From Nanobdellota archaeon (lineage in GTDB: Archaea > Nanobdellota > Nanobdellia > Pacearchaeales > GW2011-AR1): a stretch of DNA of 64,000 nt. Under the pieces are notes generated by a model. The model had not been told where the DNA came from, searched no databases, and worked only from the letters and a program-made list of their open reading frames with translations. This document shows, piece by piece, positions 7,443 to 37,420 of the stretch (position 1 is the first letter of the stretch; each line of letters begins with the position of its first letter). The stretch covers positions 52,769 to 116,768 of the forward strand of contig JBBSXB010000001.1 in the NCBI GenBank assembly GCA_038046005.1, given 5' to 3'. Position numbers and translations under genes: made by a program.

Positions 7443-7515
7443 GCCTCTGTAGCTCAGTCAGAAGAGCAGTTGCTTCGTAAGCAAAAGGTCATGGGTGCAA
7501 ATCCCATCAGAGGCT
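7443..7515 (+). tRNA. tRNA-Thr (anticodon CGT)
   Basis: Hand-folded cloverleaf: acceptor GCCTCTG/CAGAGGC, D-stem GCTC/GAGC, anticodon loop TTCGTAA, T-arm ATGGG-TGCAAAT-CCCAT, discriminator T. One G-A mismatch at the top of the anticodon stem. Confidence 0.75.
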
Positions 7516-7521
7516 TCTAAA

Positions 7522-9465
7522 ATGTGGAGCTTATATAAAGGAGATAAATTTCTGGAACCTCTTCGTTTTTCTAATGGGAAATCTCAGGAAAATGTTGTTA
7601 GCGAAGTTCTGGAAGAGATAAAAAAAGGGACAAAGGTCATATTCATCAAAGGAGTCTGTGGAACTGGGAAAAGCGCCATAGCATTGAACATTGCTAGAAA
7701 AATTGGAAAAACTTCTATTGTTGTGCCTGGAAAAACTCTCCAAAGGCAATACAAAAAAGATTATGAAAATGAGAAATATGTTTTGAAAGATGATAAAACA
7801 AAATTAAAAATAAGTGTGATAACTGGGAGAAAGAACCATAAATGCAGATTTTTAATGGAAAACAAAGAGGCCATTCCTGTCGTAAAAAGAGAAATTAACT
7901 CTAAACTTCACGATATTTTTGCAGGGAAAAGAGAAGATATTGAAAATGAGATAAAAAAAGATGAGTCTGCAGATAATGATTCTTTGCCTTGTAAGATAGA
8001 GATAAAAGAAAGGAACTGGAACAAGTTGAAATCATATCTAAATCAAAACAAAGATGTTGACTCGAGTTCTTTCACAGAGTTAAGGGACGTAAAAAGAATT
8101 CCTGTAGCAAGTGTTTGTCCTTATTGGTCTCCGGTTTTGCCTGCAAGATTAGAACTTAAGGGAAAAATATTTGCTAACGCTAAAAAAAAGAAGTATATGG
8201 GCCTAGAAAATACTGAATTTATTTTCTATCAGAGAAAAGAAGGCTGTCCTTTTTACAGCCAGTTCAATTCTTTTATAGAGTCTGATGTTATAGTCTTTAA
8301 TTCAAGTAAATATAAAATAGAGTCTTCAATGAATAGAAAACCTTTGACAGAGGTAGAAATAATAGATGAGTGTGATGAATTCTTAGACAGTTTTTCAAAT
8401 CAAAAAAATCTTAATATAGAAAGGCTTCAAAATTCTTTGATTAATTATGTTAATGAAAATGAAAAAGATAAGAAGGAGATATCTGAGTTATTGGAAATAA
8501 TCCAGTATATTAAAAGAGATGCAAGAATAAATAATGCTATTGTTACAAAAGAAATAATCCCTCTAAAAGAAACGGGAGTTTATGATTTATTAAAAATTAT
8601 ATTAAAAAGTTCTGGAATTTTTGAAGAAGCTGATGATGAAAGCTATCTTTTTGATTGTGAGGAGATAGCAAAGACTTTCAAGGATTTTGTTAATGAAACT
8701 TACATCACTGCTGAAAAAAAAGACAAAAACATTATAATTAGTTTAGTTACGACAAATCTCGCAAAAAAGTTTAAAGAAATGGTTGATAAAAATAAAGCTA
8801 TAGTTTTAATGTCTGGAACTTTACATTCTAATCAAGTGTTAAAAGATATTTTTGGATTGGATAATTTTAAAGTTATTGAGGCTGAGGTTGAGAGCCAAGG
8901 AAGCATAATCGTGAAAAAAACAGGTTTTGAAAAAGATTTTAAATATTCTAATTTGTCCAATGGAAAACATTCAAGGGAAGAATATCTTAAAGCTTTGAAT
9001 AAATGTGTTGAGATTGCGAAAAGACCGACACTCATACATATCAATGCATTCATGGATTTGCCAAGCAATCAAGAAATTCAAGAATATGATCTGAAAAATT
9101 TGATAAGCAGAGATGAAATAAAAGATTCGCAGTCACAGAATAACGAAGTGGAGACTATAAACAAATTCAAAAATAAAGAAGTAGATGTTTTGTTCTCGAC
9201 TAAGGTTTCAAGAGGCATGGATTTTCCCGGAGATGAATGCAATAGTATTGTTTTTACAAAATACCCAAATCCAAACGTACAAGATCCTTTTTGGAAAATA
9301 TTAAACAGAACAAGACCTGAGCATTATTGGGAGTTTTACAGGGATAAAGCTAAAAGAGAATTGTGGCAGAAGATATACAGAGGCTTGAGATTTAAAGAAG
9401 ACAAAGTTGAAGTTTTAAGCCCTGATGTAAGAGTGTTGGATTTTTTTGAAAATAAAGGGAAATGA
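7522..9465 (+). CDS. Rad3/XPD-family Fe-S DNA helicase (superfamily 2)
   Basis: Walker A GVCGTGKS, DExD-like IIDECDEF, XPD-type SGTL motif (LMSGTLHS), four Cys spaced as in the XPD 4Fe-4S domain (KCRF, LPCKIE, SVCPYW, EGCPFY), C-terminal RGMDFPGDECNSIVFTKYPNP. The track ORF begins at a GTG inside the tRNA, so the start was moved to ATG 7522. Confidence 0.65.
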   Translation: MWSLYKGDKFLEPLRFSNGKSQENVVSEVLEEIKKGTKVIFIKGVCGTGKSAIALNIARKIGKTSIVVPGKTLQRQYKKDYENEKYVLKDDKTKLKISVITGRKNHKCRFLMENKEAIPVVKREINSKLHDIFAGKREDIENEIKKDESADNDSLPCKIEIKERNWNKLKSYLNQNKDVDSSSFTELRDVKRIPVASVCPYWSPVLPARLELKGKIFANAKKKKYMGLENTEFIFYQRKEGCPFYSQFNSFIESDVIVFNSSKYKIESSMNRKPLTEVEIIDECDEFLDSFSNQKNLNIERLQNSLINYVNENEKDKKEISELLEIIQYIKRDARINNAIVTKEIIPLKETGVYDLLKIILKSSGIFEEADDESYLFDCEEIAKTFKDFVNETYITAEKKDKNIIISLVTTNLAKKFKEMVDKNKAIVLMSGTLHSNQVLKDIFGLDNFKVIEAEVESQGSIIVKKTGFEKDFKYSNLSNGKHSREEYLKALNKCVEIAKRPTLIHINAFMDLPSNQEIQEYDLKNLISRDEIKDSQSQNNEVETINKFKNKEVDVLFSTKVSRGMDFPGDECNSIVFTKYPNPNVQDPFWKILNRTRPEHYWEFYRDKAKRELWQKIYRGLRFKEDKVEVLSPDVRVLDFFENKGK

Positions 9466-10150: not shown

Positions 10151-10432
10151 TCAATCAAATCCGAGAAGTCTTCTCCACCAGGATGCTTTTACAGGCATAG
10201 AATGATCGTTTTCATCCATTATCTCATGGGTTATAACCGGCTTTTCTTTAAGAATGGGAGCCTCAGATGCAAGTTGTTTAGTGGCGTCCCTCATTGCCTC
10301 TTCTATGAATGTCCTTGAATATCCTTGATTTACCAAAGCCCACTTCAAAGATTCCATAGTGTAGCCTTTTTTCAGATTATTCTTAAAATATTCTGCAAGT
10401 CTTCTCTTTCTTTCGTTTTCTCTTTCACCCAT
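10151..10432 (-). CDS. Hypothetical protein (93 aa)
   Basis: Basic N-terminus. No recognised family. Confidence 0.35.
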   Translation of the reverse strand: MGERENERKRRLAEYFKNNLKKGYTMESLKWALVNQGYSRTFIEEAMRDATKQLASEAPILKEKPVITHEIMDENDHSMPVKASWWRRLLGFD

Positions 10433-10471: not shown

Positions 10472-11950
10472 CTAGACAATCTTTATTGGACTGTATTTTT
10501 TACAGAATCCTATTGCCTGCCTTAACCTTATTTTCGAATCAGAATAGATTGTTAGTATCTTATCTCCTTTTTTAACGCTCTCTTTAAGGTGATGGTAAAG
10601 GTATACTCCTGAAGATTTGTATGTCGGACAACCGACCGTCCTGGCAAGAGAATTTATTTTCTTATTGTCTATCTCCTTGATTCTTCCAGATTTGTATGAA
10701 AGCACATCGTGTTTGAATTTTCCAAGCTTAGGGTTTCTGACTTTTCCTTTTTGCGCTTTGATAATCTCCTTAAATTTATCGAATGCCCTTCCACAAACGA
10801 GAATCTCTTTGGCCATTGAAAAACCCTTGTCGGGTTTTGCTTTCCTGACCATTTCCAACAATTCACCGGCAAGAAATAAAGATTTATTCTCCAAGTCCAT
10901 TGGTCTGTCCTGATCCTGACGAAAAACTTTGAGTATGTCTGAGAGCTCCAACTCTGGACCTACACCATTGCCAATTGGCTGGCTACCATCAGTTAAAACA
11001 ACTTTTATTTTTTTATGGAAGTATTTTCCTATTTTTTCAAATTTTCTTTTGAGCCTTATTGCTGTTTTTTTGTCAACTTTAGCAGTTTTTCCATATGGAA
11101 TGTCTATCAAAATGTAACTGCTTCCACTGGCCAATTTTTTTGATATTATCGAAGCCAAAAGATGGGCCTCTGGGTCCAAGTTTAAAATTTTTTCAATCTG
11201 GATTATTTTTGAATCTGCAGGCACTATTCCCAAAGAGCCGCCCCAAATTATGAAGGCGTTAGTTTTTTTTATTATTTTTTTCAATTCTTTATTAGAAAAT
11301 TCAACTTTTGCAATTGTCTCTATCACATCTGCAGTTCCTGCTGCGCTTGTTATGGCCCTGGAAGAACTTTTTGGCATGATTAATCCTGCAGCGGCACAAA
11401 TTGAGACAACTAGGGGGGTTGTCCTGTTGGCAGGAATTCCACCTATGCAATGTTTATCAACAACAAGTTTGTTTCTTAAAGATAATTTTTCTCCAGTTTC
11501 TAAAATTGCTTTAATCAGATAAATTGTTTCCTTAAAGGTCATTCCTTGTTTGTATACGGCAGAAACAAAAAGTGCTAATTCCGGGCCAGACAGAGAGTTA
11601 TTAACAACATCTTCGATGATTTCTTTTATTTCTTTTTGTGACAGCCTTCCCCGATTAAGTTTTTTCTTTATTAAATCTAAACTGTCTGGGGGTTCTGAAA
11701 GTGAAACAATTATTTTTTGGCCCTTTTTTAGATTAAGCATCTTTGCTATTTCTGAAGAAACTCCAATTTCTCCCTCCCTAATGAATTTTGAAGCTATGTC
11801 AACAATTGCAGAAAGTTCTTTAGAAGTAGATGAAGACTTTAATGAAGCCCTTCCCCCTGGAGGCACACCTATTTTGTTCGCTGTTTTTTCATCAATAACC
11901 ACAACAGGAAATCCAGTAGACCAGTTTAATAACTTAACTTTTAGTTCCAT
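10472..11950 (-). CDS. deoA: AMP phosphorylase (thymidine phosphorylase/DeoA family, archaeal type)
   Basis: 492 aa, the length of archaeal AMP phosphorylases with their N-terminal extension. Pyrimidine-nucleoside phosphorylase motifs DKHCIGGIP, TSAAGTAD, and GxGxxD-like region. Confidence 0.8.
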   Translation of the reverse strand: MELKVKLLNWSTGFPVVVIDEKTANKIGVPPGGRASLKSSSTSKELSAIVDIASKFIREGEIGVSSEIAKMLNLKKGQKIIVSLSEPPDSLDLIKKKLNRGRLSQKEIKEIIEDVVNNSLSGPELALFVSAVYKQGMTFKETIYLIKAILETGEKLSLRNKLVVDKHCIGGIPANRTTPLVVSICAAAGLIMPKSSSRAITSAAGTADVIETIAKVEFSNKELKKIIKKTNAFIIWGGSLGIVPADSKIIQIEKILNLDPEAHLLASIISKKLASGSSYILIDIPYGKTAKVDKKTAIRLKRKFEKIGKYFHKKIKVVLTDGSQPIGNGVGPELELSDILKVFRQDQDRPMDLENKSLFLAGELLEMVRKAKPDKGFSMAKEILVCGRAFDKFKEIIKAQKGKVRNPKLGKFKHDVLSYKSGRIKEIDNKKINSLARTVGCPTYKSSGVYLYHHLKESVKKGDKILTIYSDSKIRLRQAIGFCKKYSPIKIV

Positions 11951-12004: not shown

Positions 12005-13042
12005 CTAATCTTTTTTTAGCAAGGTTGAATAAAAATTTTTATGGCCCCCTCTAAGCACTTCAAGAATTATGAGTAAATAAGAAAGTATCAAGGGGCCTAA
12101 CAAAAGCCCAAGGATGCCAAATACGAATATACCCCCAGTCATTCCAATTAAGATTATAGCAGAATGTATTTGTAATCTTCGTGAAACAAAAAATGATCTG
12201 TAAAAATGTTCAACATTTGAAGCAATTATTCCGAAAGCAAAAATTCCGAAAGCGTCAAAAGTACGATTGTTAATCAAGAGGTATATGACTACCGGAATCC
12301 AGACCAACATAGGTCCTAAGATAGGTAACACACCAACAACTATTGCCACTACACTTAATAACAAAGCATTAGGGACACCAAATAAGAACAAACCACTGGA
12401 CAGAACTACTCCTTGAATGAATCCTATAACAATCTGCCCGTAAAGAAGGGAGGCAGTCATGTCCTTCGAATATCTAAATATTTTTTCCTCAACTTCTTTT
12501 GAAAACGGGGAAAGACTCTTTACAAACTCAAAAATTTTGTCTTTGTCTCTAAGAGCAAAATAAAAAGTGAATAACACCACTAAGATGTGAAGCAATATAT
12601 TCGGCAGATTGAGAATAAAACTTGAAAAAGTATTTAATACGGAGTTTGCCACTTTGGGAATAAAAGATTGTATTGTGCCGGCAACCTCAGAAGAAAATTG
12701 CTCTGAAGCAAAAAAAGAAGGGGAGATTTGTCTGAGCAATCCAACAAAATCCATATTTTGAGCGGAAACATAAAATTTGAATGATTGATTTATAAGTATT
12801 GGGGTAAAAAGCCAAATTGGGATAACAATCAGCAAAAGCAAGATAATAGTGACTATCGACGCTGAAAGGTTTGGCATTTTAAAGTGTTTCAAAAGAAATT
12901 TGTATATTGGATAAAATATGAACGCAAGAATAAATCCGATTATTATATCCATGATAATTGGCCTTACAACTATAAAAGAAAGAATCAAAAGTACCACTAT
13001 AAGAATTATAGTTGAGGTTTTCCTAAATGAGTTATCTTCCAT
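12005..13042 (-). CDS. AI-2E family (UPF0118/PerM-like) membrane transporter
   Basis: About 345 aa, 7-8 TM helices. Conserved C-terminal pattern VVGVLPILGPMLVWIPVVIYLLI typical of the AI-2E family. Start taken at internal Met (MEDNSF...). Confidence 0.55.
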   Translation of the reverse strand: MEDNSFRKTSTIILIVVLLILSFIVVRPIIMDIIIGFILAFIFYPIYKFLLKHFKMPNLSASIVTIILLLLIVIPIWLFTPILINQSFKFYVSAQNMDFVGLLRQISPSFFASEQFSSEVAGTIQSFIPKVANSVLNTFSSFILNLPNILLHILVVLFTFYFALRDKDKIFEFVKSLSPFSKEVEEKIFRYSKDMTASLLYGQIVIGFIQGVVLSSGLFLFGVPNALLLSVVAIVVGVLPILGPMLVWIPVVIYLLINNRTFDAFGIFAFGIIASNVEHFYRSFFVSRRLQIHSAIILIGMTGGIFVFGILGLLLGPLILSYLLIILEVLRGGHKNFYSTLLKKD

Positions 13043-13104
13043 ATTATTATTACTAACTAGAAGTGCATGAAATTTATAAAGGTTTTTGAACAAAAATTTA
13101 GATA

Positions 13105-27175: not shown

Positions 27176-28609
27176 ATGAACTTTAAGCAGATATTTAATT
27201 ACATACCTGAGGTGAAAAAACCTGAGGAAAAAAAGCTCAGCTTTAATGTGAAGCTTAAGTGGACTCTTATTATTCTTGCAGCTTTTTTCGTTTTGGCAAA
27301 TATTTCTCTTTTTGGATTAAGCCAAAATTCACTTTCCAGGTTTGAATATCTTGCAATAATTCTTGGAACAGATTTTGGAAGCATAATATCGTTAGGAATA
27401 GGTCCGATAGTTATGGCTTCGATTATTTTGCAATTATTAGCTGGGTCGGGAATTTTGAATATTGACCAGACTACAGAAGAAGGGAAAAAATTTTTCCAAG
27501 GAATACAAACACTTATGGTGTTTTTCTTCATAATATTCGAGGCATTAATATACGTAATAATGCAAGGTCTTCAGGCGGCGCCAGGACTGACGGAAGTCGT
27601 TATATTTCAACTGATTCTTGGAGGATTAGCTATATTCTATATGGATCAGGTGACCACAAAATGGGGATTTGGAAGCGGAGTTAGTTTGTTTATTGCTGCA
27701 GGAGTCTCATGGAGGCTTATGACTGGAGGATTTCAGTTCATAAATCAGCAAGGAAGAAATTGTCTTTTAGATTTCAACAACACTCCTTGTGCGGGAAAAG
27801 TTCTTGTTTTACTCCAATCAATTGTAAATAGAGCCCCTATTGAGTTGACATCTGCTTTATCTGCAATACTTGCTACTATAGCAATAACATTGCTTGTTGT
27901 CTGGGCTCAATCTCTTAAAGTTGAAATTCCACTCTCGTTTGGCAGAATAAGAGGATATACTGTAAAATGGCCTCTTGCATTCTTTTACGCATCAAATATT
28001 CCAGTAATTCTTACAGCTGCCTTGGTTGCAAATATGCAGCTCTTTGGGGGGTTAATTGAAAACGCTGCTACAAGCTGTGCTCAAGGAACTTGTTCTGCGT
28101 TAGCAGGTTTTGCGTCACATTTAACATTTTTAGGAACTTTCATTAATGGACAACCGGTGTCAGGATTAGCATTTTGGGTCGGCTCAAATAATATTTTAGA
28201 CTTAATAATCAGAGGCGGACTTTTACCTAGATACTTGCTTCAAGGACTTACACATATAGTGTTTTTTATGGGTTTATCAATGATATTCTCTGTTTTTTGG
28301 GTTAAAACATCTGGGATGGACGCAAAGGCCCAAGCACATAAAATTTCTGCTTCAGGATTACAAGTTTCTGGTTTCAGACAGGATGAAAGAATTCTTGAAT
28401 CTATATTGTCTAGGTATATAATGCCTTTAACTGTGATGGGGGGAGCTGCTGTCGGACTCTTAGCTGCAACAACAGATTTGCTTGGGGCTTTAGTTTCAGG
28501 AACAGCAATATTATTAGTCGTAATGATAATGTTCCAGTTCTATCAGAGCATTGCGCAGCAACATCAGACAGACATGAATCCTGCAATAAGAAAATTCATG
28601 GGTAGCTAA
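27176..28609 (+). CDS. secY: Preprotein translocase subunit SecY
   Basis: 477 aa, 10 TM. Canonical position at the end of the spc-like operon. Confidence 0.9.
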   Translation: MNFKQIFNYIPEVKKPEEKKLSFNVKLKWTLIILAAFFVLANISLFGLSQNSLSRFEYLAIILGTDFGSIISLGIGPIVMASIILQLLAGSGILNIDQTTEEGKKFFQGIQTLMVFFFIIFEALIYVIMQGLQAAPGLTEVVIFQLILGGLAIFYMDQVTTKWGFGSGVSLFIAAGVSWRLMTGGFQFINQQGRNCLLDFNNTPCAGKVLVLLQSIVNRAPIELTSALSAILATIAITLLVVWAQSLKVEIPLSFGRIRGYTVKWPLAFFYASNIPVILTAALVANMQLFGGLIENAATSCAQGTCSALAGFASHLTFLGTFINGQPVSGLAFWVGSNNILDLIIRGGLLPRYLLQGLTHIVFFMGLSMIFSVFWVKTSGMDAKAQAHKISASGLQVSGFRQDERILESILSRYIMPLTVMGGAAVGLLAATTDLLGALVSGTAILLVVMIMFQFYQSIAQQHQTDMNPAIRKFMGS

Positions 28610-28683
28610 GCTTTAAAAAAGAGATTCTCTTAACACTAAAATGAACAAAATAAAAAAGGGAGTAAATTCCTTTTCTAAATAAA

Positions 28684-29220
28684 ATGAATAAAGAAGGAAG
28701 TTTCAAACCTGTAGTCATAGTATTGGTGATTTCTATGCTCATCGCTTTTTTTTGGAATAGTTTGACTTTTCTTAAAGATGGAGTGCATGCAGTCTTAAAC
28801 CCCACTCTTGGTGCTTTGATAAATTGGAATGTTAACATTGGAATGTCAATTGTAGTTTTGTTGATAACTGTTGTCACAACTGTGGTTCAAAAGTATACAA
28901 CAGATCAAGAAGCCTTAAAAGATTTGAAAAAGCAGCAAAAAGAAATGAATGAAAAGGCCAAACAGCACAGAAGCGACCCGCAAAAAATGCTCGAGATACA
29001 GAAAGAAATGGCTCCTTTAAGCATAAAGATGATGAAGCTTAGCATGAGGGCATTTGTATTTACCGCAATTCCTTTGCTTTTGTTCATCAGATGGTTTGTG
29101 GACTTCTTCACAAGCATAGGAAATCCAAAGATATTCGGATTTTTCAGCTGGCTTTGGTTTTACATATTGTTCAGCCTTATTGTAAGTGCAATCCTTAGAA
29201 AGATTATGAAAATTGTCTAA
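28684..29220 (+). CDS. DUF106 family membrane protein (archaeal YidC/Oxa1/EMC3-like insertase)
   Basis: 178 aa: TM, coiled-coil (KDLKKQQKEMNEKAKQ...MLEIQKEMAP), then two TM segments. Matches the architecture of archaeal DUF106 proteins, which commonly follow secY. Confidence 0.55.
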   Translation: MNKEGSFKPVVIVLVISMLIAFFWNSLTFLKDGVHAVLNPTLGALINWNVNIGMSIVVLLITVVTTVVQKYTTDQEALKDLKKQQKEMNEKAKQHRSDPQKMLEIQKEMAPLSIKMMKLSMRAFVFTAIPLLLFIRWFVDFFTSIGNPKIFGFFSWLWFYILFSLIVSAILRKIMKIV

Positions 29221-29248
29221 GGGACTTTGTTTACAAAGTGATTTCTGT

Positions 29249-30019
29249 TTAAAAAGTTGCTAGATAATTTTCATATTGGATTTTTATTAATTTGTAACCA
29301 TACTTTTTAAAAAATTGAATTACTTCTTTATAACAATTGTCATTTATCTCAATAATCACATTTTTTATTCTTTTTTTTGAGAAAAGATTTATTCCACCCT
29401 TTAAAATATTAAATTCTGAACCATCAACATCTATTTTAATCAAATCAATTTCCTTATTCTTAAAAAGATTATCCAATGTGTCTGTTTTAACTATTTCGAA
29501 TCCCTCACGTAGCCAATTATTAAACTTCTCTCTGCCTTTTCTGTTGCTTAATCCTACCCTAATTGGATAAACATTCTTGAGATTATTTAGGGATATGTTT
29601 TTATTCAATGTAATAAAATTCTTCTTATCAACTTCTATCGGAAACACCTCTGCATTAGGATTAACTTTACTAGCAAGAATAGTATATTTTCCTATATGTG
29701 CCCCCACATCTACAATAACTTTACTTTTCTTTGCAATTTTTTCAAAAACTTTTCCAGTTTCAAACTCATAAGAACCTGAAACAATATGCAGGTCAAGGCA
29801 TTTCTCCTTGCATAAAAATAAACCATAACCATTGTCTATTATTGTGGGTTTCATTAAAGTGTCTCCCATTGAAAATCTATCTTTCTTAAGAATCAACTTT
29901 TCAATTAGCCTACAAAACAAATATTTTAACTTTTCTTTTTGAACCGAAACATTATCTAAGAAACTGTTGCCCTTTAATTTAATAAATGATTGTAATTTGT
30001 TCATCTTTTCTATATGCAT
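29249..30019 (-). CDS. FkbM-family SAM-dependent methyltransferase
   Basis: 256 aa. DVGAHIGKYT and the IEVDKKNF...L.NV-like FkbM signature. Confidence 0.7.
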   Translation of the reverse strand: MHIEKMNKLQSFIKLKGNSFLDNVSVQKEKLKYLFCRLIEKLILKKDRFSMGDTLMKPTIIDNGYGLFLCKEKCLDLHIVSGSYEFETGKVFEKIAKKSKVIVDVGAHIGKYTILASKVNPNAEVFPIEVDKKNFITLNKNISLNNLKNVYPIRVGLSNRKGREKFNNWLREGFEIVKTDTLDNLFKNKEIDLIKIDVDGSEFNILKGGINLFSKKRIKNVIIEINDNCYKEVIQFFKKYGYKLIKIQYENYLATF

Positions 30020-30064
30020 AATTGTGCAGAAGTGATATTTAAAATTATCGGTATAATTAAACCT

Positions 30065-30283
30065 ATGTCAAGAGATAGTATTTTGGACATTACGGAAAAA
30101 ATATTAAAAAGGCTCTCTAACAAGAAAGAGCATACAATAAACAATATTTCAAATGAATTAAAGATTCAATGGAGAACTTCTGTTAAAGTTTTGGAATTTC
30201 TTGAAAGGATAGGTTTAGCTAAAGAAAGAAGGGGTAAAATAACTTACAAACAAGAGAGGTTGTTTAGTATTAGGAAGAAATAG
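30065..30283 (+). CDS. Small winged-helix DNA-binding protein (putative regulator)
   Basis: About 72 aa from the internal Met. ILKRLSNKKEHTINNISNELKIQWRTSVKVLEFLERIGLAKERRGKITY resembles wHTH. Divergent from the FkbM gene. Confidence 0.35.
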   Translation: MSRDSILDITEKILKRLSNKKEHTINNISNELKIQWRTSVKVLEFLERIGLAKERRGKITYKQERLFSIRKK

Positions 30284-30384
30284 TTTTTATATAAATTCTT
30301 AGACATTTCTGTTTAATAAACCAAGCTTTTAAATAAAATCTTGTCTAAGGAAAGTTTTATAATCTCTTATTTCTCTTTTCGATT

Positions 30385-30780
30385 ATGGAAAACCCCGAAC
30401 AGGAATTAATGTTCAAATTAAGTTACTTTGAACAGCAGATTAAGCTATTGCAGAATCAACTGGAGGCTGTTGAGCAAGCCTTGTTTGAGCTGTCCAATCT
30501 GAGCGACGGGCTGAATGAAATGAAAAATGGAAAGGACAGAGAAATTTTAGCGAGTGTTGGAAGAGGCATATTCGCAAAAGCAAAACTTTTATCTGACGAG
30601 CTTATTGTAGATGTTGGCGGAAAGAATTTTGTGAAGAAAAGCATTCCAGATACACAGAATATTATTGAAGCTCAATCTGAAAAATTAGAAATGATAAGGA
30701 AAGAGCTGGAAGATAATTTGGAAAAGGTTAATGAAGAAGTCACCAAAACTTTTGAAGAGGCTCAGAATAAGAGTGGATAA
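30385..30780 (+). CDS. pfdA: Prefoldin alpha subunit
   Basis: 131 aa. Coiled coil, two beta-hairpins (ILASVGRGIFAKAKLLSDELIVDVGGKNFVKKSI), coiled coil. Confidence 0.7.
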   Translation: MENPEQELMFKLSYFEQQIKLLQNQLEAVEQALFELSNLSDGLNEMKNGKDREILASVGRGIFAKAKLLSDELIVDVGGKNFVKKSIPDTQNIIEAQSEKLEMIRKELEDNLEKVNEEVTKTFEEAQNKSG

Positions 30781-30787
30781 AAAAAGG

Positions 30788-31603
30788 CTACTTAGCTTTT
30801 CTCACAAACTCACTATAGCTTAATATTCCAAGCTCACTAATTATCTTTGTTATATATTTTTTAGGCACAAATTCAAATGCAGGATTTTTTATCTTTACAT
30901 TTCTTGGCACTTTATCCCAAACTTCATTCAAAGATCTTTGTTCAATTGGAATCTTGTTTTTTGAGAACTTCCAAGAATCAGCGATGATATAAACAGGGAC
31001 TTTATGGTCATATGCTATTTCTGCAAACATCCCACTTCCAATTTTGTTTATTATTCCATTTTTTAATAATGCGTCTGCCCCAAGAAATACTTTATCAACT
31101 TGAGTGTTTCCCTTTCCTCTGATGATAGCAATTCTTGCCCCAGAGTCAGCATATTGTGTAACTTTTATCCCAGCTTTTGCAAGTTCTTTAGCGGTTTTTC
31201 TACCTTGATACAAAGGACGAGTTTCAGTATTATAAACCTCAAAATTTTTTCCTTTCTTTTTTGTATAAATCAAAGAATTGACTACGTTAGTTGAATGGCA
31301 ATGTGTAAAAATTTTGTCCTTGTTTTTTATAATTTTCAGAACATTGTTATTAATTTCATTTTGTGCCTTATCAAAGTGGAGAACAATTTCATCGTAAGAT
31401 GATTTTTTGGATAAATCAAGAACCTTAGACAGCATTGGTTCTGTTGGTCTTGCTAAAAGAAGTTTTTTCTTTGAATTTAAGTTTGGAAGTAAAGAATAAG
31501 CTTTCAAAGCAGCTTTTGCAATGTTTCGGGCTCCTTGAATTTTGACTGATTTTATATCATTTATGATTTTATTAAGAAATCTCTTTTTTGTTAGCAAATC
31601 CAT
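30788..31603 (-). CDS. eIF-2B alpha/beta/delta (e2b2) family protein, putative ribose-1,5-bisphosphate isomerase
   Basis: 271 aa. THCHS (catalytic-Cys position) and GADALLKNG (catalytic-Asp position) as in isomerases of this family. Confidence 0.6.
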   Translation of the reverse strand: MDLLTKKRFLNKIINDIKSVKIQGARNIAKAALKAYSLLPNLNSKKKLLLARPTEPMLSKVLDLSKKSSYDEIVLHFDKAQNEINNNVLKIIKNKDKIFTHCHSTNVVNSLIYTKKKGKNFEVYNTETRPLYQGRKTAKELAKAGIKVTQYADSGARIAIIRGKGNTQVDKVFLGADALLKNGIINKIGSGMFAEIAYDHKVPVYIIADSWKFSKNKIPIEQRSLNEVWDKVPRNVKIKNPAFEFVPKKYITKIISELGILSYSEFVRKAK

Positions 31604-31663
31604 TTTTTAATAATGCAAAAAGAATATAAAAAGGTTTTTAAAAGTAATCAATGTCAAGTTTAA

Positions 31664-32443
31664 ATGCACTATAAAGAGATAATGCTCCATAGACTTAGAG
31701 ACTTAGACTCAATTTTAAGAGCTAAAAAGAAAACTAAACTGTTTTTGTATGTATTTCTAAGACAAGTTTTTAAGTTAATTGGAATAAATGAAGAAAGAAT
31801 AAAATCTTTGATTGAAAAAAACGAGTCTAAAGTTTTTGGAAATATTTTTTATGTTAGAGAAAAAACTTTAGACTTTCTGTTTGTATCAAAGTATTACGAA
31901 CCAGAAACAACTAATTTTATAAGAAAAACAAAAGGCGATGTTTTTATTGATGTTGGAGCGCACATTGGAAGATATGCTGTTTTGAGTTCTGAAAGTTATA
32001 AAAAAGTTTATGCCATAGAACCTCATCCAGGGAATTTTAAATCTCTTAATAAAAATGTAAAACGCAATAATTTGAAAAACGTTTTTTGTTTAAATTTTGC
32101 TGCTTCTAATTTTGAAAAAACACTTTTTTTGGAAGATTTAAACATAAATACTGGAACAGTGAAAATTGATCCAGATGGTAAAATTAAGGTTAAGGCGAAA
32201 AAACTAGACAACTTGATTAAAAAAAATTCTATAAACGTCAGAGATTTGGGTTTGGTGCTCATTGACGTAGAGGGTCATGAGATTGAGGTCTTAAATGGTG
32301 CAAAGAACATGTTAAAGATAGGCAAGGCAAAACTTATAGTAGAAACTTTTGACTTAGAAAAATTGACCAGATTTCTTGAAAAGTATGGTTACAAAAAAAG
32401 AAGAATTTTCGATTACTACAATTATTTATTCGTAAAAGAATAA
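31664..32443 (+). CDS. FkbM-family SAM-dependent methyltransferase (second copy)
   Basis: 259 aa. DVGAHIGRYAV and the FkbM core. Paralogous to 29249..30019. Confidence 0.7.
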   Translation: MHYKEIMLHRLRDLDSILRAKKKTKLFLYVFLRQVFKLIGINEERIKSLIEKNESKVFGNIFYVREKTLDFLFVSKYYEPETTNFIRKTKGDVFIDVGAHIGRYAVLSSESYKKVYAIEPHPGNFKSLNKNVKRNNLKNVFCLNFAASNFEKTLFLEDLNINTGTVKIDPDGKIKVKAKKLDNLIKKNSINVRDLGLVLIDVEGHEIEVLNGAKNMLKIGKAKLIVETFDLEKLTRFLEKYGYKKRRIFDYYNYLFVKE

Positions 32444-32481
32444 TTACGAAACTTTAAAAATTCTTCCTGCGTGCTAGAGAA

Positions 32482-33342
32482 ATGCTTGAGTCTATTATAA
32501 ATCCAAAGAATGTTGAAAAGGGATCGTGGAAAATGCTTTTTATAGGTTTAATATACGGTTCTCTTTCATTATTGTTGGTTAAATGGTTTTTTGGAGGAGA
32601 TGTCGTCCTTTCAAAATTTTCAGGAATGATAACTGTGACTTTTTGTGTCATGTTTTCTCTGCCATTTATGTATTACCTAATAAAACAAGAAGAGGAAGAA
32701 GATGAGGAGATTGAAGGATTTTTTAGTGTATGGAAAATGCACAAAAATGCAGTGTACTCATTCATGTGGCTTTTTTTGGGATTTATAATCTCTTTCGCAT
32801 TGTGGTATATGATTTTGCATGACTCTAATTTGTTCAATGCTCAGGTAGAAACATATTGTTTGATAAATAGCCCGGGAAACATAGAAGGGTGTGTCGCGAG
32901 GTATAATATAGAGAATACTGTTTCGACGACAGGAGCCGCAACTAAAGAGCTAAGACTTCTTTCAATTATAGAGAATAATGTCTATGTTATGATATTCACC
33001 CTTATCTTCTCTCTTATTTTTGGTGCTGGAGCAATATTTGTTTTGGCTTGGAATGCAAGCGTCATATCTGCTGCAATTGGAATCTTTACAAATTATAAGA
33101 TTAGTGAGATTCCATTTGGACTTCTGAGATATATGATTCATGGGTTCCCTGAAATAACTGCTTATTTTATAACTGCTTTGGCTGGGGGAATATTTGGTGT
33201 TGGGATAATAAGGAATGGGGTAAAAAGCCCCAAATTTTTAAGAATAGTTGAAAATGTAGTTGTTTTACTTTTTATAGCAATACTTATCTTAATTGTTGCA
33301 GGAATTATTGAAGTGTATTTCACCCCCATACTCTTTAATTGA
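32482..33342 (+). CDS. SpoIIM/DUF95-like integral membrane protein
   Basis: 286 aa, about 6 TM. HGFPEITAYFITALAGGIFG resembles the DUF95 HGxxElxA motif. Confidence 0.5.
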   Translation: MLESIINPKNVEKGSWKMLFIGLIYGSLSLLLVKWFFGGDVVLSKFSGMITVTFCVMFSLPFMYYLIKQEEEEDEEIEGFFSVWKMHKNAVYSFMWLFLGFIISFALWYMILHDSNLFNAQVETYCLINSPGNIEGCVARYNIENTVSTTGAATKELRLLSIIENNVYVMIFTLIFSLIFGAGAIFVLAWNASVISAAIGIFTNYKISEIPFGLLRYMIHGFPEITAYFITALAGGIFGVGIIRNGVKSPKFLRIVENVVVLLFIAILILIVAGIIEVYFTPILFN

Positions 33343-33389
33343 TAGGACAAATAAGTAATCTTTAAAAATAATCTTTTAATTTTATATTA

Positions 33390-34388
33390 ATGGAGATGCT
33401 TTTGATTCTTACAATTTTTATAAGTTTTAGTGTTACGTTTCTGATAATCCCGTACTGGATAAGAAAAGCTAGAGAAAATGGAATGGTTGCAAGAGACATG
33501 CACAAAAATGGAAAAGATGGTGTTGCAGAACATGGAGGAATTCCTGTTTTGTTTGGGTTGACAATCGGAATTTTGTCTTATATTGCTTTGAAAACATTTT
33601 ATTTCAAATCAGATGGTGAAACGATTTTTATTTTTGCATTGCTAAGTTCTGTTTTGATTAGTTCTATTGTTGGCCTTATGGACGATCTTCTCGGTTGGAA
33701 AAAAGGATTATCTAAAAAAATAAGACTTATTGCCATAGCTTTTGCAGCAATACCACTAATGGTAGTAAATGCGGGAGTAGATTCAGTTAGTTTACCTATT
33801 ATTGGAGGGGTTAACTTTGGATTATTATTCCCTCTAGTGATTATACCTTTAGGGATTGTTGGAGCTACAACAACTTTTAATTTTTTAGCAGGTTATAATG
33901 GATTGGAATCGAGCCAAGGAATTTTAATTCTAGGGGCTTTAGCTCTGGCAACATACATTACTGGAAGCAGTTGGGTGACTATTATTTGTTTATGTGGTGT
34001 AGCCTCACTTAGTGCCTTTTACATATTTAACAAACATCCTGCAGACATATTTCCAGGAAATATTTTAACTTATCTCACTGGAACTATGATTGCAGCAGTA
34101 GCGATTATAGGTAATGTAGAAAAAATAGCAATAATTTTCTTTATCCCTTACATTATTCAGACTGTATTGAAAGTAAGAGGAGGATTAAAAAAAGAGAGTT
34201 TTGCTGGTTTAAACAAAGATGGAAGTTTAGAAATGCCATATGACAAAGTATATGGATTAGAACATATAGCAATAGTAGTGTTAAAAAAAATAAGACCAAG
34301 CAAAAAAGTTTATGAAAAAGACGTTGTTTATTTGATAAACATTTTCCAGATTATATTTATTGCAATTGGATTTTTGACAATCTTATGA
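33390..34388 (+). CDS. aglH: Dolichyl-phosphate (UDP-)HexNAc-1-phosphate transferase (AglH/MraY/WecA family, GT4-like)
   Basis: 332 aa, about 10 TM. MDDLLG and NFLAGYNGLE motifs (the NxxxGxDGL of the MraY/WecA family). Confidence 0.8.
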   Translation: MEMLLILTIFISFSVTFLIIPYWIRKARENGMVARDMHKNGKDGVAEHGGIPVLFGLTIGILSYIALKTFYFKSDGETIFIFALLSSVLISSIVGLMDDLLGWKKGLSKKIRLIAIAFAAIPLMVVNAGVDSVSLPIIGGVNFGLLFPLVIIPLGIVGATTTFNFLAGYNGLESSQGILILGALALATYITGSSWVTIICLCGVASLSAFYIFNKHPADIFPGNILTYLTGTMIAAVAIIGNVEKIAIIFFIPYIIQTVLKVRGGLKKESFAGLNKDGSLEMPYDKVYGLEHIAIVVLKKIRPSKKVYEKDVVYLINIFQIIFIAIGFLTIL

Positions 34389-34456
34389 TTATTGTTCTGT
34401 GAATTATACCTTACAAAATCCATAAACCTTTAAAATGCCTTATTCTTAATGTCTAA

Positions 34457-37420
34457 ATGACCGACGAAGAAAATAATGTTGGAAAAGAAAGCGAGAAAAA
34501 AGAATTTAATGAACATGTTCACCACAAAAAAAGCAGTGATGAAATTGATTTTTCCAAGTTTGTTAATGTGGTAAATAAAAATAATTATGTTTTAGTTTTT
34601 TCTATGCTTTCTCTTTTAGCACTAATAGTCAGCATTTTAAGTCTTGCAAAAGCAAATGTTGGAATCAGCGTTGTTAACAATCTGATTAATTTATTTCCTA
34701 CTTGGATTTTTTTGTTTCTTTTTGCAATGCTGATTTTATCATCTATATGTGCTTACTTTGAAAAATATGCAATAATGTTTTTGCCATTGTTGATATGGAT
34801 TATGTTTACAACTGCTTATGTAAGAACATCAAATTTAAGCCAGCTCAAAGATATAACTACTGGAGGCTATACTCTTGGACCAGATTTAGATCCATTCTTA
34901 TACTTAAGAAATGCTCAAGAAATTCTGAGAGGAACTCTCCAAAATCCTGACCCCATGAGATATGTCCCGCTTGGTTCACAAAACTACGCATTTGGTAATT
35001 TAATGCCTTGGGCACTTGTTTTTGTGTTTAAGATATTTTCTATATTTAGCAAAGTATCTCTAGAATATGCGGCAAACGTAACGCCCGTAATTTTCTTTTT
35101 AATATCGATGGTTGGGTTTTTTCTATTTAATAGAAGCATTTTTTCAATAAAATTTTCAAAAAACTTCGCAACAGCCGTAGCTATATTAGCTAGCGCCATT
35201 TATGCATTTTTGCCACAAATGCTCCATAGAACAACTGGTGGAATCCCTGAAATTGAAAGTTTAGGAATGGTTTGGTTTTGGTTTGCGTTGCTATTTTTTA
35301 CACTTGCTTGGAAAAATAAAGATAAGAAAAACTGGATAATTTACGGTGCTATAGCCGGAATCTTCACAGGATTAATGTCTTGGACTTGGGGAGGGTATAG
35401 ATATTTGTATATGGCCATAAGTGCAACTTCGTTTGTGTTCTTTTTATTTGAAAAAAATAGAAAAAAGAATTTTTACATATTCTTATCATGGGCAATTCCT
35501 GCCTTAATTCTAGAATTTTTAAGACTTAAAAGTTTATCAGCAATGATAATTAAAGTGAGTGATACTGGCTCGGCTATATTTATACTGTCCATATTCCTTG
35601 TTGATGTTTTAGTTGTAAAGACAAAACTAAAAGAAAGATTCTTCAAAAAGATACCTTTAAATGGAAGTCTGTTAAGTATAGCTATAGATGTTTTGCTCAT
35701 AATAATATTCTTATTAGTGCTTAATCCTAGTTTCTTGATAAATTCTACTTCAGGATTGATCCAAGGATTACTTTATCCATTTGGAAGAGGAAGAGTGGGA
35801 GTGACTGTTGCAGAAAACAAAGTCCCATATTTTTCAGAGATATTGGGCAATTTTGGAAACTTATTTTGGATTTTCCTCTTAGGAAATTTAGTAATATTTT
35901 GGGAATCTGCAAAAGAACTGAATAAAAAGAAAAGAATAACTCTCACAGCATTCTTTGTGTTATTACTTGCAGGATTATCTTTTTCTAGAATTTCGACAAG
36001 CAATTTATTGAATGGAAATAATCTCTTTTCAGATGTTTTTTACTTAAGTGGAATTATTTTATTTGGTGGTGCCATGGTTTATACTTGTTATAAAGCAAAA
36101 AGATTGAATGATGAGAGCACTTTGGATGGGTTAAAAAAAATAGGAGTTGCTGAAGTTTTAATTTTAGCACTTTCATTTTTTGCATTAGTCTCTACACGTG
36201 GGGCGATTAGATTATTTTTTATAATAGCCCCATTAATTACAATAGTTGTTGCATACATTCCTGTTAGGATAACCAAATCAATAAAAGACAACAGAGAAAA
36301 AGGGAAAAAGAATAATCTTGTTCTTTGGATTTTGTTTTTCGTATCAATACTAGCAATCCTAGGAGTTGGTATAAATAATGCAAACAGCACTTATGCCGAA
36401 GCAAGGTCTACAGTTCCAGGCATTTATGAACAATACTGGCAAAACGCAATGGCTTGGGTTAGAGAAAATACTACTGAAGGAAGTGTATTTGTTCATTGGT
36501 GGGACTATGGGTATTGGGTGCAAACTATTGGAGAACGACCGACAGTAACAGATGGGGGGCACTACATTGATTATTGGGATCATTTAATTGGAAGATATGT
36601 TTTAACTACTCCTTACCCAGAAACAGCACTTAGTTTCATGAAAACACATAATGTATCTTATTTGTTGATAGATGAGACTGATTTGGGAAAATACTCTGCA
36701 TACTCTAGCATAGGAAATGATCAAGACAATAATGACAGAATGTCCTGGATCTCGATGATGTTGCTAGACCAAAAACAAACTCAAGAAACTAGCAATTCCA
36801 CAATAATGGTTTATGCTGGAGGAAGCGCACTTGATGAAGACTTAATCTACAACCAAGGGGATAAAGAAATTTTTCTTCCTGAAGGAAAAGCAGGTTTAGC
36901 CGCGGTGATAATTGAAAACAAAAAATCAAATGAAAGCAGCCAGATTGGACAGCCAGTAGGAATTTTTGTGTATAATGGGCAACAGTTCAGAATTCCGATA
37001 AAAAGAATTTTCTTGAACAATAAGCTGATTAATTTTGATGAAGGAATAAATGCCACTGTCTTTTTGATTCCAACACTAGAGAACGCTCAAAATGGGGGTT
37101 TAAGAATAAACAATCTTGGGGGAATTATTTATTTGTCTAGAAAGGTGCAAGATGGTCTTTTTGCACAGCTTTATCTTATGGATGACCCTTCAAAAGAGTA
37201 TCCAACTCTAAGCTTAGCCCATGTTGAACCAGATCCATTAATAGGCAACATTAAGTCACGTGGAGCGGCAGATTTAGGGGATTTTATATATTACCAAGGA
37301 TTTAGGGGTCCAATGAAAATCTGGAAAGTCAGTTACCCAGATAGCATAATTAGCCGAGAGGAATTCTTGAGAACTGATGGATTATTTGGAGAATTTGATA
37401 ACCTGACTTTTACAAAATAA
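34457..37420 (+). CDS. aglB: Archaeal oligosaccharyltransferase AglB (STT3 family)
   Basis: 987 aa. N-terminal 13-TM region and WWDYGYW motif (VFVHWWDYGYWVQTIG) diagnostic for STT3/AglB. C-terminal periplasmic domain. Confidence 0.85.
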   Translation: MTDEENNVGKESEKKEFNEHVHHKKSSDEIDFSKFVNVVNKNNYVLVFSMLSLLALIVSILSLAKANVGISVVNNLINLFPTWIFLFLFAMLILSSICAYFEKYAIMFLPLLIWIMFTTAYVRTSNLSQLKDITTGGYTLGPDLDPFLYLRNAQEILRGTLQNPDPMRYVPLGSQNYAFGNLMPWALVFVFKIFSIFSKVSLEYAANVTPVIFFLISMVGFFLFNRSIFSIKFSKNFATAVAILASAIYAFLPQMLHRTTGGIPEIESLGMVWFWFALLFFTLAWKNKDKKNWIIYGAIAGIFTGLMSWTWGGYRYLYMAISATSFVFFLFEKNRKKNFYIFLSWAIPALILEFLRLKSLSAMIIKVSDTGSAIFILSIFLVDVLVVKTKLKERFFKKIPLNGSLLSIAIDVLLIIIFLLVLNPSFLINSTSGLIQGLLYPFGRGRVGVTVAENKVPYFSEILGNFGNLFWIFLLGNLVIFWESAKELNKKKRITLTAFFVLLLAGLSFSRISTSNLLNGNNLFSDVFYLSGIILFGGAMVYTCYKAKRLNDESTLDGLKKIGVAEVLILALSFFALVSTRGAIRLFFIIAPLITIVVAYIPVRITKSIKDNREKGKKNNLVLWILFFVSILAILGVGINNANSTYAEARSTVPGIYEQYWQNAMAWVRENTTEGSVFVHWWDYGYWVQTIGERPTVTDGGHYIDYWDHLIGRYVLTTPYPETALSFMKTHNVSYLLIDETDLGKYSAYSSIGNDQDNNDRMSWISMMLLDQKQTQETSNSTIMVYAGGSALDEDLIYNQGDKEIFLPEGKAGLAAVIIENKKSNESSQIGQPVGIFVYNGQQFRIPIKRIFLNNKLINFDEGINATVFLIPTLENAQNGGLRINNLGGIIYLSRKVQDGLFAQLYLMDDPSKEYPTLSLAHVEPDPLIGNIKSRGAADLGDFIYYQGFRGPMKIWKVSYPDSIISREEFLRTDGLFGEFDNLTFTK

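Follow-up and report, generated by a model that had tools for sequence, protein, structure and literature searches.

In DPANN and CPR organisms of minimal metabolism, the deoA and e2b2 genes, with or without that of RuBisCO, constitute the textbook route by which the ribose of scavenged nucleotides is brought into lower glycolysis. A 64-kb stretch of DNA (the window) from a Pacearchaeota-type DPANN archaeon, belonging to an NCBI metagenome-assembled genome with locus-tag prefix AABW51 and showing a GC content of 0.32, raises the question of whether a deoA-type and an e2b2-type gene found in it encode the first two enzymes of that route, and whether their joint occurrence signals that the genome also has a type III RuBisCO pathway, as a preliminary description of the sequence had proposed. 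The host is a groundwater archaeon with a tiny genome. The two genes lie ~19 kb apart, with the archaeal ribosomal-protein operon and SecY in between, and the features considered are the following:

10151..10432, minus strand: conserved 93-aa open reading frame (orf93), immediately downstream of the phosphorylase gene, without family match
10472..11950, minus strand: AMP/NMP phosphorylase homologue of the deoA type, 492 aa, ATG start (MEK6917407.1)
12005..13093, minus strand: permease of the AI-2E/PerM family, next gene upstream of that of the phosphorylase (PF01594, 151.9 bits)
30788..31603, minus strand: compact ribose-1,5-bisphosphate isomerase homologue of the e2b2 / IF-2B family, 271 aa, ATG start (MEK6917442.1, AABW51_00670)

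Both the 492-aa and the 271-aa reading frame were recovered where the preliminary description had placed them, and the e2b2 motifs that it had quoted are found in the translation ('IFTHCHSTNV' and 'FLGADALLKNG'). No further open reading frame of the IF-2B or phosphorylase families was found in the 64-kb window. Judging from family homology, catalytic and substrate-contact residues, the synteny kept among relatives and a tree position beside homologues from RuBisCO clusters, the window likely encodes divergent versions of the two enzymes with which the archaeal AMP / pentose-bisphosphate salvage route begins, a reading to which we assign an overall probability of about 0.78. The finding is real, was correctly identified and is already known for Pacearchaeota, among the DPANN lineages in which the deoA/e2b2/RuBisCO pathway has been described (PMC6389311, PMC8407392).

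The phosphorylase and its permease neighbour

Profile searches against NCBIfam gave the 492-aa protein scores of 544.8 for NF003338 (cutoff 434; 1.5e-163) and 523.5 for TIGR02645 (cutoff 434.6; 4e-157), together with 499.1 for TIGR03327 (AMP_phos; 1e-149), the latter being under the equivalog cutoff of 535. On the contrary, models for thymidine (TP) and pyrimidine nucleoside (PyNP) phosphorylases scored 129 (T_phosphoryl) and 220 (Y_phosphoryl), compared with the 499-545 of the archaeal models. The best PDB match was the Thermococcus kodakarensis AMP phosphorylase (Tk-AMPpase) structure 4ga5 (1.9e-101), versus 1.8e-38 for the best PyNP. Residues 1-100 of the protein align with residues 1-100 of 4ga5, while with TP/PyNP structures the alignment starts no earlier than residue ~85-92, indicating that the AMPpase-specific N-terminal domain is present. 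Such a domain, of ~84 residues, sets AMPpases apart and is absent from thymidine phosphorylases (PMC8376864).

Identity to homologues adjacent to RuBisCO in other DPANN archaea is 37-46%, and these homologues score 511-607 on TIGR03327, so that the 499 of the window protein falls just under a continuous range. The homologue of locus L050, which sits in an e2b2-RuBisCO-AMPpase cluster, is also under the cutoff (511.5, from a C-terminally cut stretch of 474 aa) and the remaining RuBisCO-adjacent ones reach 537-607; the TIGR03327 cutoff thus provides no clean separation in the DPANN lineage. Altogether, as judged by sequence, the 492-aa protein is a member of the archaeal AMPpase-type clade rather than one of the TP/PyNP of bacteria and eukaryotes, and it would convert nucleoside 5'-monophosphates into the free base and ribose-1,5-bisphosphate (R15P).

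The permease and phosphorylase genes share a strand, the former coming first, with 54 bp between them. A permease homologue occupies the same upstream, same-strand position in 41/45 phosphorylase loci of relatives, at a median distance of 45 bp (<=143 bp in 38/41), and the pairing is also seen in the RuBisCO-containing loci L050/L055, L077 and L080. This near-constant association of the phosphorylase with an AI-2E-family permease is a small new point. The permease is probably its operon partner, with both genes presumably co-transcribed, and the pairing makes it a tangible candidate for the transporter of a pathway that, in symbionts, has no explained source of substrate. On the other side of the phosphorylase gene, orf93 is conserved in 27/45 loci of relatives, and searches of Pfam and NCBIfam returned no match for it.

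The compact e2b2 protein

The 271-aa protein matched the Pfam IF-2B family with 160.6 bits (6e-47) and the e2b2 model TIGR00511 with 141.6, its equivalog cutoff being 314.1; the generic eIF-2B_rel model scored nearly the same, 136. DPANN e2b2 proteins adjacent to RuBisCO gave 141-241 bits on TIGR00511 and 8/8 of them were under the cutoff, which makes this model too narrow for DPANN. Sub-cutoff NCBIfam scores were considered as evidence against family membership and set aside as uninformative, since RuBisCO-adjacent DPANN homologues fail too. As the equivalog models miss this lineage, and PGAP names the two products 'hypothetical protein' (e2b2) and 'thymidine phosphorylase', pathway surveys based on PGAP names can be expected to undercount the route.

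The best PDB matches of the e2b2 protein were the R15P isomerases (R15Pi) 5yfj (8e-32) and 3a11. Its Cys102 ('THCHS') and Asp177 ('GAD') align with the catalytic residues mutated in 5yfs (C135S) and 5yft (D204N), the equivalent pair in the T. kodakarensis isomerase being Cys133/Asp202. Regarding the Pyrococcus horikoshii enzyme PH0208, C102, S104, Q133 and D177 correspond to C135, S137, Q166 and D204, and N186, K187, K212 and R52 to N214, K215, K240 and R65. In PH0208, the 1-phosphate is contacted by Arg22, Arg65, Gln166 and Lys215, the 5-phosphate by Ser137 and Lys240, and the sugar by Asn214 and Lys215 (PMC5789824). The catalytic Cys/Asp and 8/9 substrate-contact residues are kept, and they are invariant among 40 clade members; the sole exception among the mappable contacts for R15P or ribulose-1,5-bisphosphate (RuBP), Arg22 to Gln23, is common to all DPANN e2b2 proteins, RuBisCO-adjacent ones included. 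With these residues, the protein is predicted to convert R15P into RuBP by means of Cys102 and Asp177.

The AMP-activator site of PH0208 comprises Arg124, Arg190, Lys194, Asn209, Arg229, Trp231 and Asp290, and it is a regulatory rather than a catalytic site. In the e2b2 protein only Arg190 and Asn209 are kept, the changes being R124 to I91, K194 to T167 (next to a 6-residue insertion), R229 to K201, W231 to P203 and D290 to T252, and these positions vary across the clade. This lack of conservation suggests that AMP activation is probably absent. As far as the aligned residues tell, the e2b2 protein is a compact form without the AMP-activator site, which is a further small new point.

In a neighbour-joining tree rooted on MtnA (methylthioribose-1-phosphate isomerase; 188 columns), the e2b2 clade of the window grouped with the e2b2 proteins of L050, L058 and L080, loci that hold e2b2, RuBisCO and AMPpase genes together, with 94% bootstrap, while two bacterial MtnA fell outside all e2b2 with 100%; the node joining PH0208 obtained 73.5%. 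Most e2b2 proteins that directly adjoin a DPANN RuBisCO belong to a long lineage (~310 aa), 38-42% identical to the window protein. For the e2b2 protein, this tree gives a tentative answer to the phylogenetic placement called for in the preliminary description, its scope being e2b2 proteins and bacterial MtnA; as for the Cys-less aIF2B proteins, with which clustering would have contradicted an isomerase, it is the presence of the Cys that sets the window protein apart. No discriminating motifs are given in PMC6423476.

Two other identities have to be weighed against this isomerase assignment. It is very unlikely that the 271-aa protein is a non-catalytic protein of aIF2B type with a role in translation, despite its compact length (271 aa, versus 275 for the aIF2B-type PH0440, PDB 1VB5), its conserved genomic position next to SecY, prefoldin and the ribosomal-protein operon, the loss of the AMP-activator site and the lack of a PGAP name. 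Its AF2 model (pLDDT 88) has R15Pi as top fold matches (TMq 0.85), although 1vb5 follows nearly equal (TMq 0.83, TMt 0.82, rmsd 2.4) and target coverage is 0.82 for 1vb5 versus 0.72 for R15Pi. Sequence, on the contrary, favours R15Pi over 1vb5 (114 versus 76 bits, identity to the latter being 25-26%) and ranks the e2b2 model above that of aIF2B-alpha (141.6 versus 101.8), and a sister lineage of the clade lies in RuBisCO clusters. Moreover, most catalytic residues are reported to be lost in proteins of aIF2B type (PMC4787765), whereas those of the window protein are all retained, for which reason it is not filed under aIF2B. Most improbable is that the 271-aa protein is the MtnA of methionine salvage, that the 492-aa one is a plain thymidine/pyrimidine nucleoside phosphorylase, or both. 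The subfamily model TIGR00524, related to MtnA, does come close (136 versus 141.6 for e2b2) and the PGAP name of the phosphorylase points the same way, but MtnA equivalog models score 75-109 bits for cutoffs of 271-528, identity is 32-34% to bacterial MtnA versus 41-49% to R15Pi-type proteins, and no mtnK or other salvage genes were found nearby; TP/PyNP, in turn, are without the N-terminal domain. The gene identities initially proposed, an AMPpase-type phosphorylase and an e2b2 protein, hold on family profiles, N-terminal domain, catalytic and R15P-binding residues and tree grouping.

RuBisCO and the fate of ribulose-1,5-bisphosphate

The RuBP so formed may be converted into two 3-phosphoglycerate by a type III RuBisCO whose gene would lie in another part of the genome, for which we see an even chance or slightly better, or else enter some RuBisCO-independent sink. 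A six-frame scan for the motifs KPK[LMIV]G and GxD[FLIMV]xKxDE gave no match to a RuBisCO large subunit in the 64-kb window, in agreement with the earlier remark that it has no RuBisCO; the same scan found the RuBisCO of L050, hence it works. Nor was RuBisCO found in ~14 kb of flanks (~5 kb to the left and ~9 kb to the right), reached by extension from the edge genes. The RuBisCOs of L050 and L134 were also used as probes, matches being compared by NCBI accession block (MEK69173xx-8xxx) and sample origin. None of the 240 top matches, the best 120 of >7,500 clusters per probe, was assigned to AABW51, and no RuBisCO from runs SRR32696707-14 appeared among the same best 120 per probe; being drawn from that fraction of the clusters, these absences are weak evidence. 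In addition, inspection of long contigs from three relatives showed no RuBisCO closer than 10 kb to an e2b2 gene of the window type, and 11 named genomes with short e2b2 and 13 named genomes with RuBisCO, compared by accession block, share no genome.

These results make it a serious possibility, if somewhat short of even odds, that both enzymes are real in a genome without RuBisCO, where RuBP or R15P would be used by another route, e.g., phosphatase/aldolase, or where the pair would be a vertically inherited remnant awaiting a lateral RuBisCO. Inheritance fits, deoA and e2b2 being vertical in CPR/DPANN and RuBisCO sparse and laterally transferred (PMC6389311), yet the same study finds that Pacearchaeota frequently encode RuBisCO, and L134, a fairly close relative (SecY 71% identical) and the nearest one seen with RuBisCO, does carry it. 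The DNA inspected amounts, besides, to ~78 kb of a genome of probably 0.5-1 Mb. A HAD-IA hydrolase gene 41 bp upstream of the short e2b2 (73% identical to that of the window) in L145/L146 would suit a phosphatase route; however, homologues of the L145 protein adjoin RuBisCO itself in L068 and L081, and none is encoded in the window. The L145 hydrolase was considered as a RuBP phosphatase and is kept as a lead only, its match to the model being 38.6 bits for a cutoff of 330. The window, its flanks and the top matches thus lend no support to the claim that the phosphorylase/e2b2 pair marks this genome as having a type III RuBisCO pathway, and the pair alone is no proof of RuBisCO presence.

Returning to the divergent salvage enzymes that we favour, a wider scheme can be drawn, which we regard as speculative and rather unlikely: Pacearchaeota in which the permease-AMPpase operon occurs together with an AMP-insensitive e2b2 of compact form, at its conserved position, might often be without RuBisCO. 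They would hold a transporter-coupled NMP-to-RuBP module with a non-carboxylating sink (e.g., a HAD phosphatase such as that of L145/L146, where its gene and e2b2 form an apparent operon), RuBisCO being an optional lateral add-on and the permease providing the uptake or base export that is so far missing from nucleotide scavenging in these symbionts.

Comparison with known systems

The closest characterized counterpart of the phosphorylase is Tk-AMPpase, which we take to be the protein of PDB entries 4GA4, 4GA5 and 4GA6 (Sato 2007, Aono 2012, Nishitani 2013). The two can be aligned from end to end (1-491 versus 1-492) with 39.7% identity, share the ~85-residue N-terminal domain and keep the core motif '...GGIP.N.T...PK.SSRAITSAAGTADV.E'. 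The window protein differs in its sub-cutoff TIGR03327 score, in its mesophilic, low-GC DPANN host and in the pairing of its gene with an AI-2E permease. The e2b2 protein finds its best sequence and fold matches in the R15Pi of P. horikoshii (PH0208, 5YFJ) and T. kodakarensis (3A11/3VM6), with equivalents of the catalytic Cys/Asp and of Arg65, Gln166, Lys215, Ser137, Lys240 and Asn214 of the former. In contrast to these enzymes of 322-324 aa, to which it is 31-41% identical, it is ~33 residues shorter in the N-terminal helical domain and its C-terminal helix is also shorter.

[quoted passage not shown] In haloarchaea, however, guanosine is the source of R15P, by the successive action of a nucleoside phosphorylase and a ribose-1-phosphate kinase, whereas an NMP phosphorylase is encoded in the window, and the haloarchaeal RuBP phosphatase has no counterpart of the L145 HAD type there. 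The haloarchaeal pathway also includes a Ru1P aldolase.

As the deoA/e2b2 route is already the textbook explanation, one more Pacearchaeota genome changes little, and the practical by-products are that the NCBI models miss this lineage, that the pair must be read with caution as a marker of RuBisCO, and that a near-universal permease pairing nominates a transporter. In comparison with the DPANN/CPR deoA-e2b2-RuBisCO set (Wrighton 2016; Jaffe 2019, PMC6389311; PMC8407392), no RuBisCO was tied to the AABW51 genome in the DNA and matches surveyed, and the window genes are dispersed, 19 kb apart and each at a conserved syntenic position, while in L050/L055 e2b2, RuBisCO, permease and AMPpase genes are contiguous. 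Nonetheless, the lineage (Pacearchaeota/Woesearchaeota) and the two protein families are the same, and the e2b2 clade of the window is sister to the e2b2 of precisely such contiguous e2b2-RuBisCO-(permease)-AMPpase clusters (L050/L055, L058 and L080).

Gene identities

Both open reading frames lie exactly where the preliminary description had placed them, with the e2b2 motifs that it quoted, ~19 kb apart in a window of 0.32 GC, with SecY and the ribosomal-protein operon of archaeal type lying between them:

10472..11950, minus strand: AMP/NMP phosphorylase homologue (deoA-type), 492 aa
30788..31603, minus strand: e2b2, an IF-2B-family ribose-1,5-bisphosphate (R15P) isomerase homologue, 271 aa, with 'THCHS' and 'GADALLKNG'

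These two identities are supported, with a probability of about 0.8. The phosphorylase passes the archaeal phosphorylase models NF003338 (544.8) and TIGR02645 (523.5), and scores 499.1 against the AMP-phosphorylase equivalog TIGR03327, under the cutoff of 535, hence its PGAP name 'thymidine phosphorylase'. RuBisCO-adjoining DPANN phosphorylases from other contigs, 37-46% identical to it, score 511-607, and that of the three-gene cluster at locus L050 likewise falls under the cutoff; the sub-threshold score thus reflects a narrow model rather than another function. The crystallised T. kodakarensis AMPpase (4ga5) matches end to end (1.9e-101, 39.7% identity), its N-terminal domain of ~85 residues included, which sets AMPpase apart from thymidine phosphorylases (PMC8376864). 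Matches to TP/PyNP structures begin only at residue 85-92.

The e2b2 protein matches Pfam IF-2B strongly and scores 141.6 against the R15P-isomerase equivalog TIGR00511 (cutoff 314), closely followed by the generic eIF-2B_rel model (136); all RuBisCO-adjoining DPANN e2b2 proteins tested fail the same cutoff. PGAP names it 'hypothetical', as it does 10/10 other NCBI-annotated clade members looked up, while 'ribose 1,5-bisphosphate isomerase' is the JGI pipeline label of some members. Relative to characterised R15P isomerases it is ~50 residues shorter, mainly through ~33 residues absent from the N-terminal helical domain.

An aIF2B-type protein is the alternative to be weighed here. The AF2 model is confident (pLDDT 88) and best matches R15P isomerases (TMq 0.85), but the compact aIF2B structure 1vb5 fits almost equally (TMq 0.83), so that fold cannot tell the two apart. 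Among PDB sequences, R15P isomerases rank highest (P. horikoshii 114 bits, T. kodakarensis 107 bits), above aIF2B-type PH0440 (76 bits) and MtnA (~70 bits). Catalytic Cys135/Asp204 of the P. horikoshii isomerase PH0208, marked by PDB mutant entries, correspond to Cys102/Asp177, and mapping of the ligand contacts from PMC5789824 indicates that those with the 1-phosphate (Arg65, Gln166, Lys215), the 5-phosphate (Ser137, Lys240) and the sugar (Asn214) are kept, the mapped residues being invariant in 40 clade members. Arg22 is replaced by Gln here and in every DPANN e2b2, RuBisCO-adjoining ones included. Since aIF2B-type proteins are reported to have lost most catalytic residues (PMC4787765), the aIF2B reading is disfavoured. 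The AMP-activator site is not kept (R124->I, W231->P, D290->T, insertion at K194).

Lineages and surroundings of the isomerase homologue

Most e2b2 genes near RuBisCO, among 80 RuBisCO-centred loci, fall in a lineage of long proteins (~310 aa) that share only 38-42% identity with the window protein, which raised the possibility that the latter is another paralogue. Phylogenetic placement of e2b2, one of the two placements for which the preliminary description had called, speaks against this: in an MtnA-rooted NJ tree, with neither aIF2B nor archaeal M1Pi references, the window clade joins the e2b2 sequences from L050, L058 and L080 at 94% bootstrap, and MtnA stands apart from all e2b2 at 100%. 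The gene clusters of L050 and L058 are compact; L080 holds e2b2, RuBisCO and phosphorylase within ~11 kb. The long form (310-316 aa, reading 'TETQPRLQGR') is the usual RuBisCO-adjoining one, lies directly downstream of RuBisCO and convergent to it in L074, L079, L083, L092, L096, L098, L109, L116, L118, L119 and L122, and partly keeps activator residues Arg124, Arg190 and Asp290. The R15Pi-like proteins of DPANN therefore fall into two lineages at the least, and probably into three.

The slot of the short e2b2 is conserved in Pacearchaeota (window 27176-37420; L145, L147, L149), in the order ribosomal-protein operon, SecY, EMC3/TMCO1-like, prefoldin, e2b2 (convergent), SpoIIM, GT4 and STT3/AglB; a large glycosylation gene cluster follows, up to ~56 kb in the window. 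Two Methyltransf_21 (FkbM-type) paralogues, 35% identical and oppositely oriented, flank the HTH-prefoldin-e2b2 segment and do not occur at the equivalent position in three relatives examined:

29249-30019, minus strand: Methyltransf_21 paralogue 1
31664-32443, plus strand: Methyltransf_21 paralogue 2

In two other loci a HAD-IA hydrolase (L145 9315-9959, plus strand; L146 47-673) precedes a co-oriented window-type short e2b2 (73% identical) by 41 bp, and homologues of the hydrolase directly precede RuBisCO in two further contigs (L081 9270-9977; L068 5016-5720). The hydrolase has generic NCBIfam matches only, with a weak 38.6-bit match to a haloarchaeal RuBP 5-phosphatase model, and no homologue in the window.

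RuBisCO and the phosphorylase neighbourhood

As previously described, the window contains no RuBisCO large subunit, according to a six-frame scan for two signature motifs that did detect RuBisCO in a related locus; none was found in ~5 kb to its left or ~9 kb to its right. Pacearchaeota relatives (L134, L137, L138) carry RuBisCO in a CysRS-RuBisCO-NFACT-R-YhbY-S19e-L31e block, followed by TruB, that is not in the window. In L134, whose SecY is 71% identical to the window's, this block comes directly after SecY, and a Nudix-type enzyme could be an NMP source:

L134 7226-8503: RuBisCO
L134 8511-8969: Nudix hydrolase, immediately after RuBisCO

No RuBisCO lies within 10 kb of the short e2b2 slot in three relatives, no accession block is common to any of 11 named short-e2b2 genomes and any of 13 named genomes with RuBisCO, and two DPANN RuBisCO probes found no match in the NCBI accession block of the window's own MAG among the best 120 of >7,500 clusters each. 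Sampling being sparse, these searches do not show absence from the genome, for which we put the chances of an encoded RuBisCO at roughly even. Of the pentose-bisphosphate pathway signature initially proposed, both gene identities are supported, while a RuBisCO pathway in this genome does not follow from window, flanks or listed matches; that the pair implies it is unproven.

RuBisCO and e2b2 are near the phosphorylase in only 1/45 phosphorylase-centred loci of reference genomes, L050 (e2b2-RuBisCO-permease-phosphorylase). Within 10 kb of RuBisCO in the 80 metagenome loci, e2b2 occurs in 21 and phosphorylase in 13. The genes beside the phosphorylase are:

12005-13093, minus strand: AI-2E/PerM-family permease, 54 bp upstream of the phosphorylase, same strand
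10151-10432, minus strand: conserved 93-aa ORF, following the phosphorylase in 27 loci, no Pfam/NCBIfam match

In 41/45 relatives' loci a co-oriented permease homologue precedes the phosphorylase with operon-like spacing (median gap 45 bp), and even the loci that have diverged furthest, with no other synteny left, keep the pairing. The relatives carry the labels Pacearchaeota, Woesearchaeota or Nanoarchaeota; the closest of them, MAG H41-bin116_1 (phosphorylase 90% identical), has an isolate name that suggests Hainich groundwater wells. A tRNA-Thr (CGT, 7443-7515) overlaps the listed GTG start of a 656-aa XPD-like helicase ORF (7495-9465), whose true start is probably downstream because the gene caller gives 647 aa. 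In L144 a Resolvase (serine recombinase) gene (8484-9263), ~6 kb past the right edge of the window, breaks a run of ribosomal-protein and RNA-polymerase genes.

Comparison with published systems

Nucleotide salvage through deoA, e2b2 and RuBisCO is published for DPANN, Pacearchaeota expressly included (PMC6389311; PMC8407392), and JGI labels exist, so the finding is correct but ordinary. In CPR/DPANN, deoA and e2b2 are largely vertical, RuBisCO being sparse and lateral, although Pacearchaeota nonetheless frequently encode it (PMC6389311); haloarchaea have a RuBisCO-independent pathway with R15P isomerase (PMC9700705). Neighbours of DPANN AMP phosphorylases are described as not conserved (PMC8407392), and a full-text literature search found, among the papers covered, none naming both AI-2E and AMP phosphorylase. 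The permease directly upstream of the phosphorylase in 41/45 loci may be a new point, as may the compact form of the Pacearchaeota isomerase, which does not keep the AMP-activator site.
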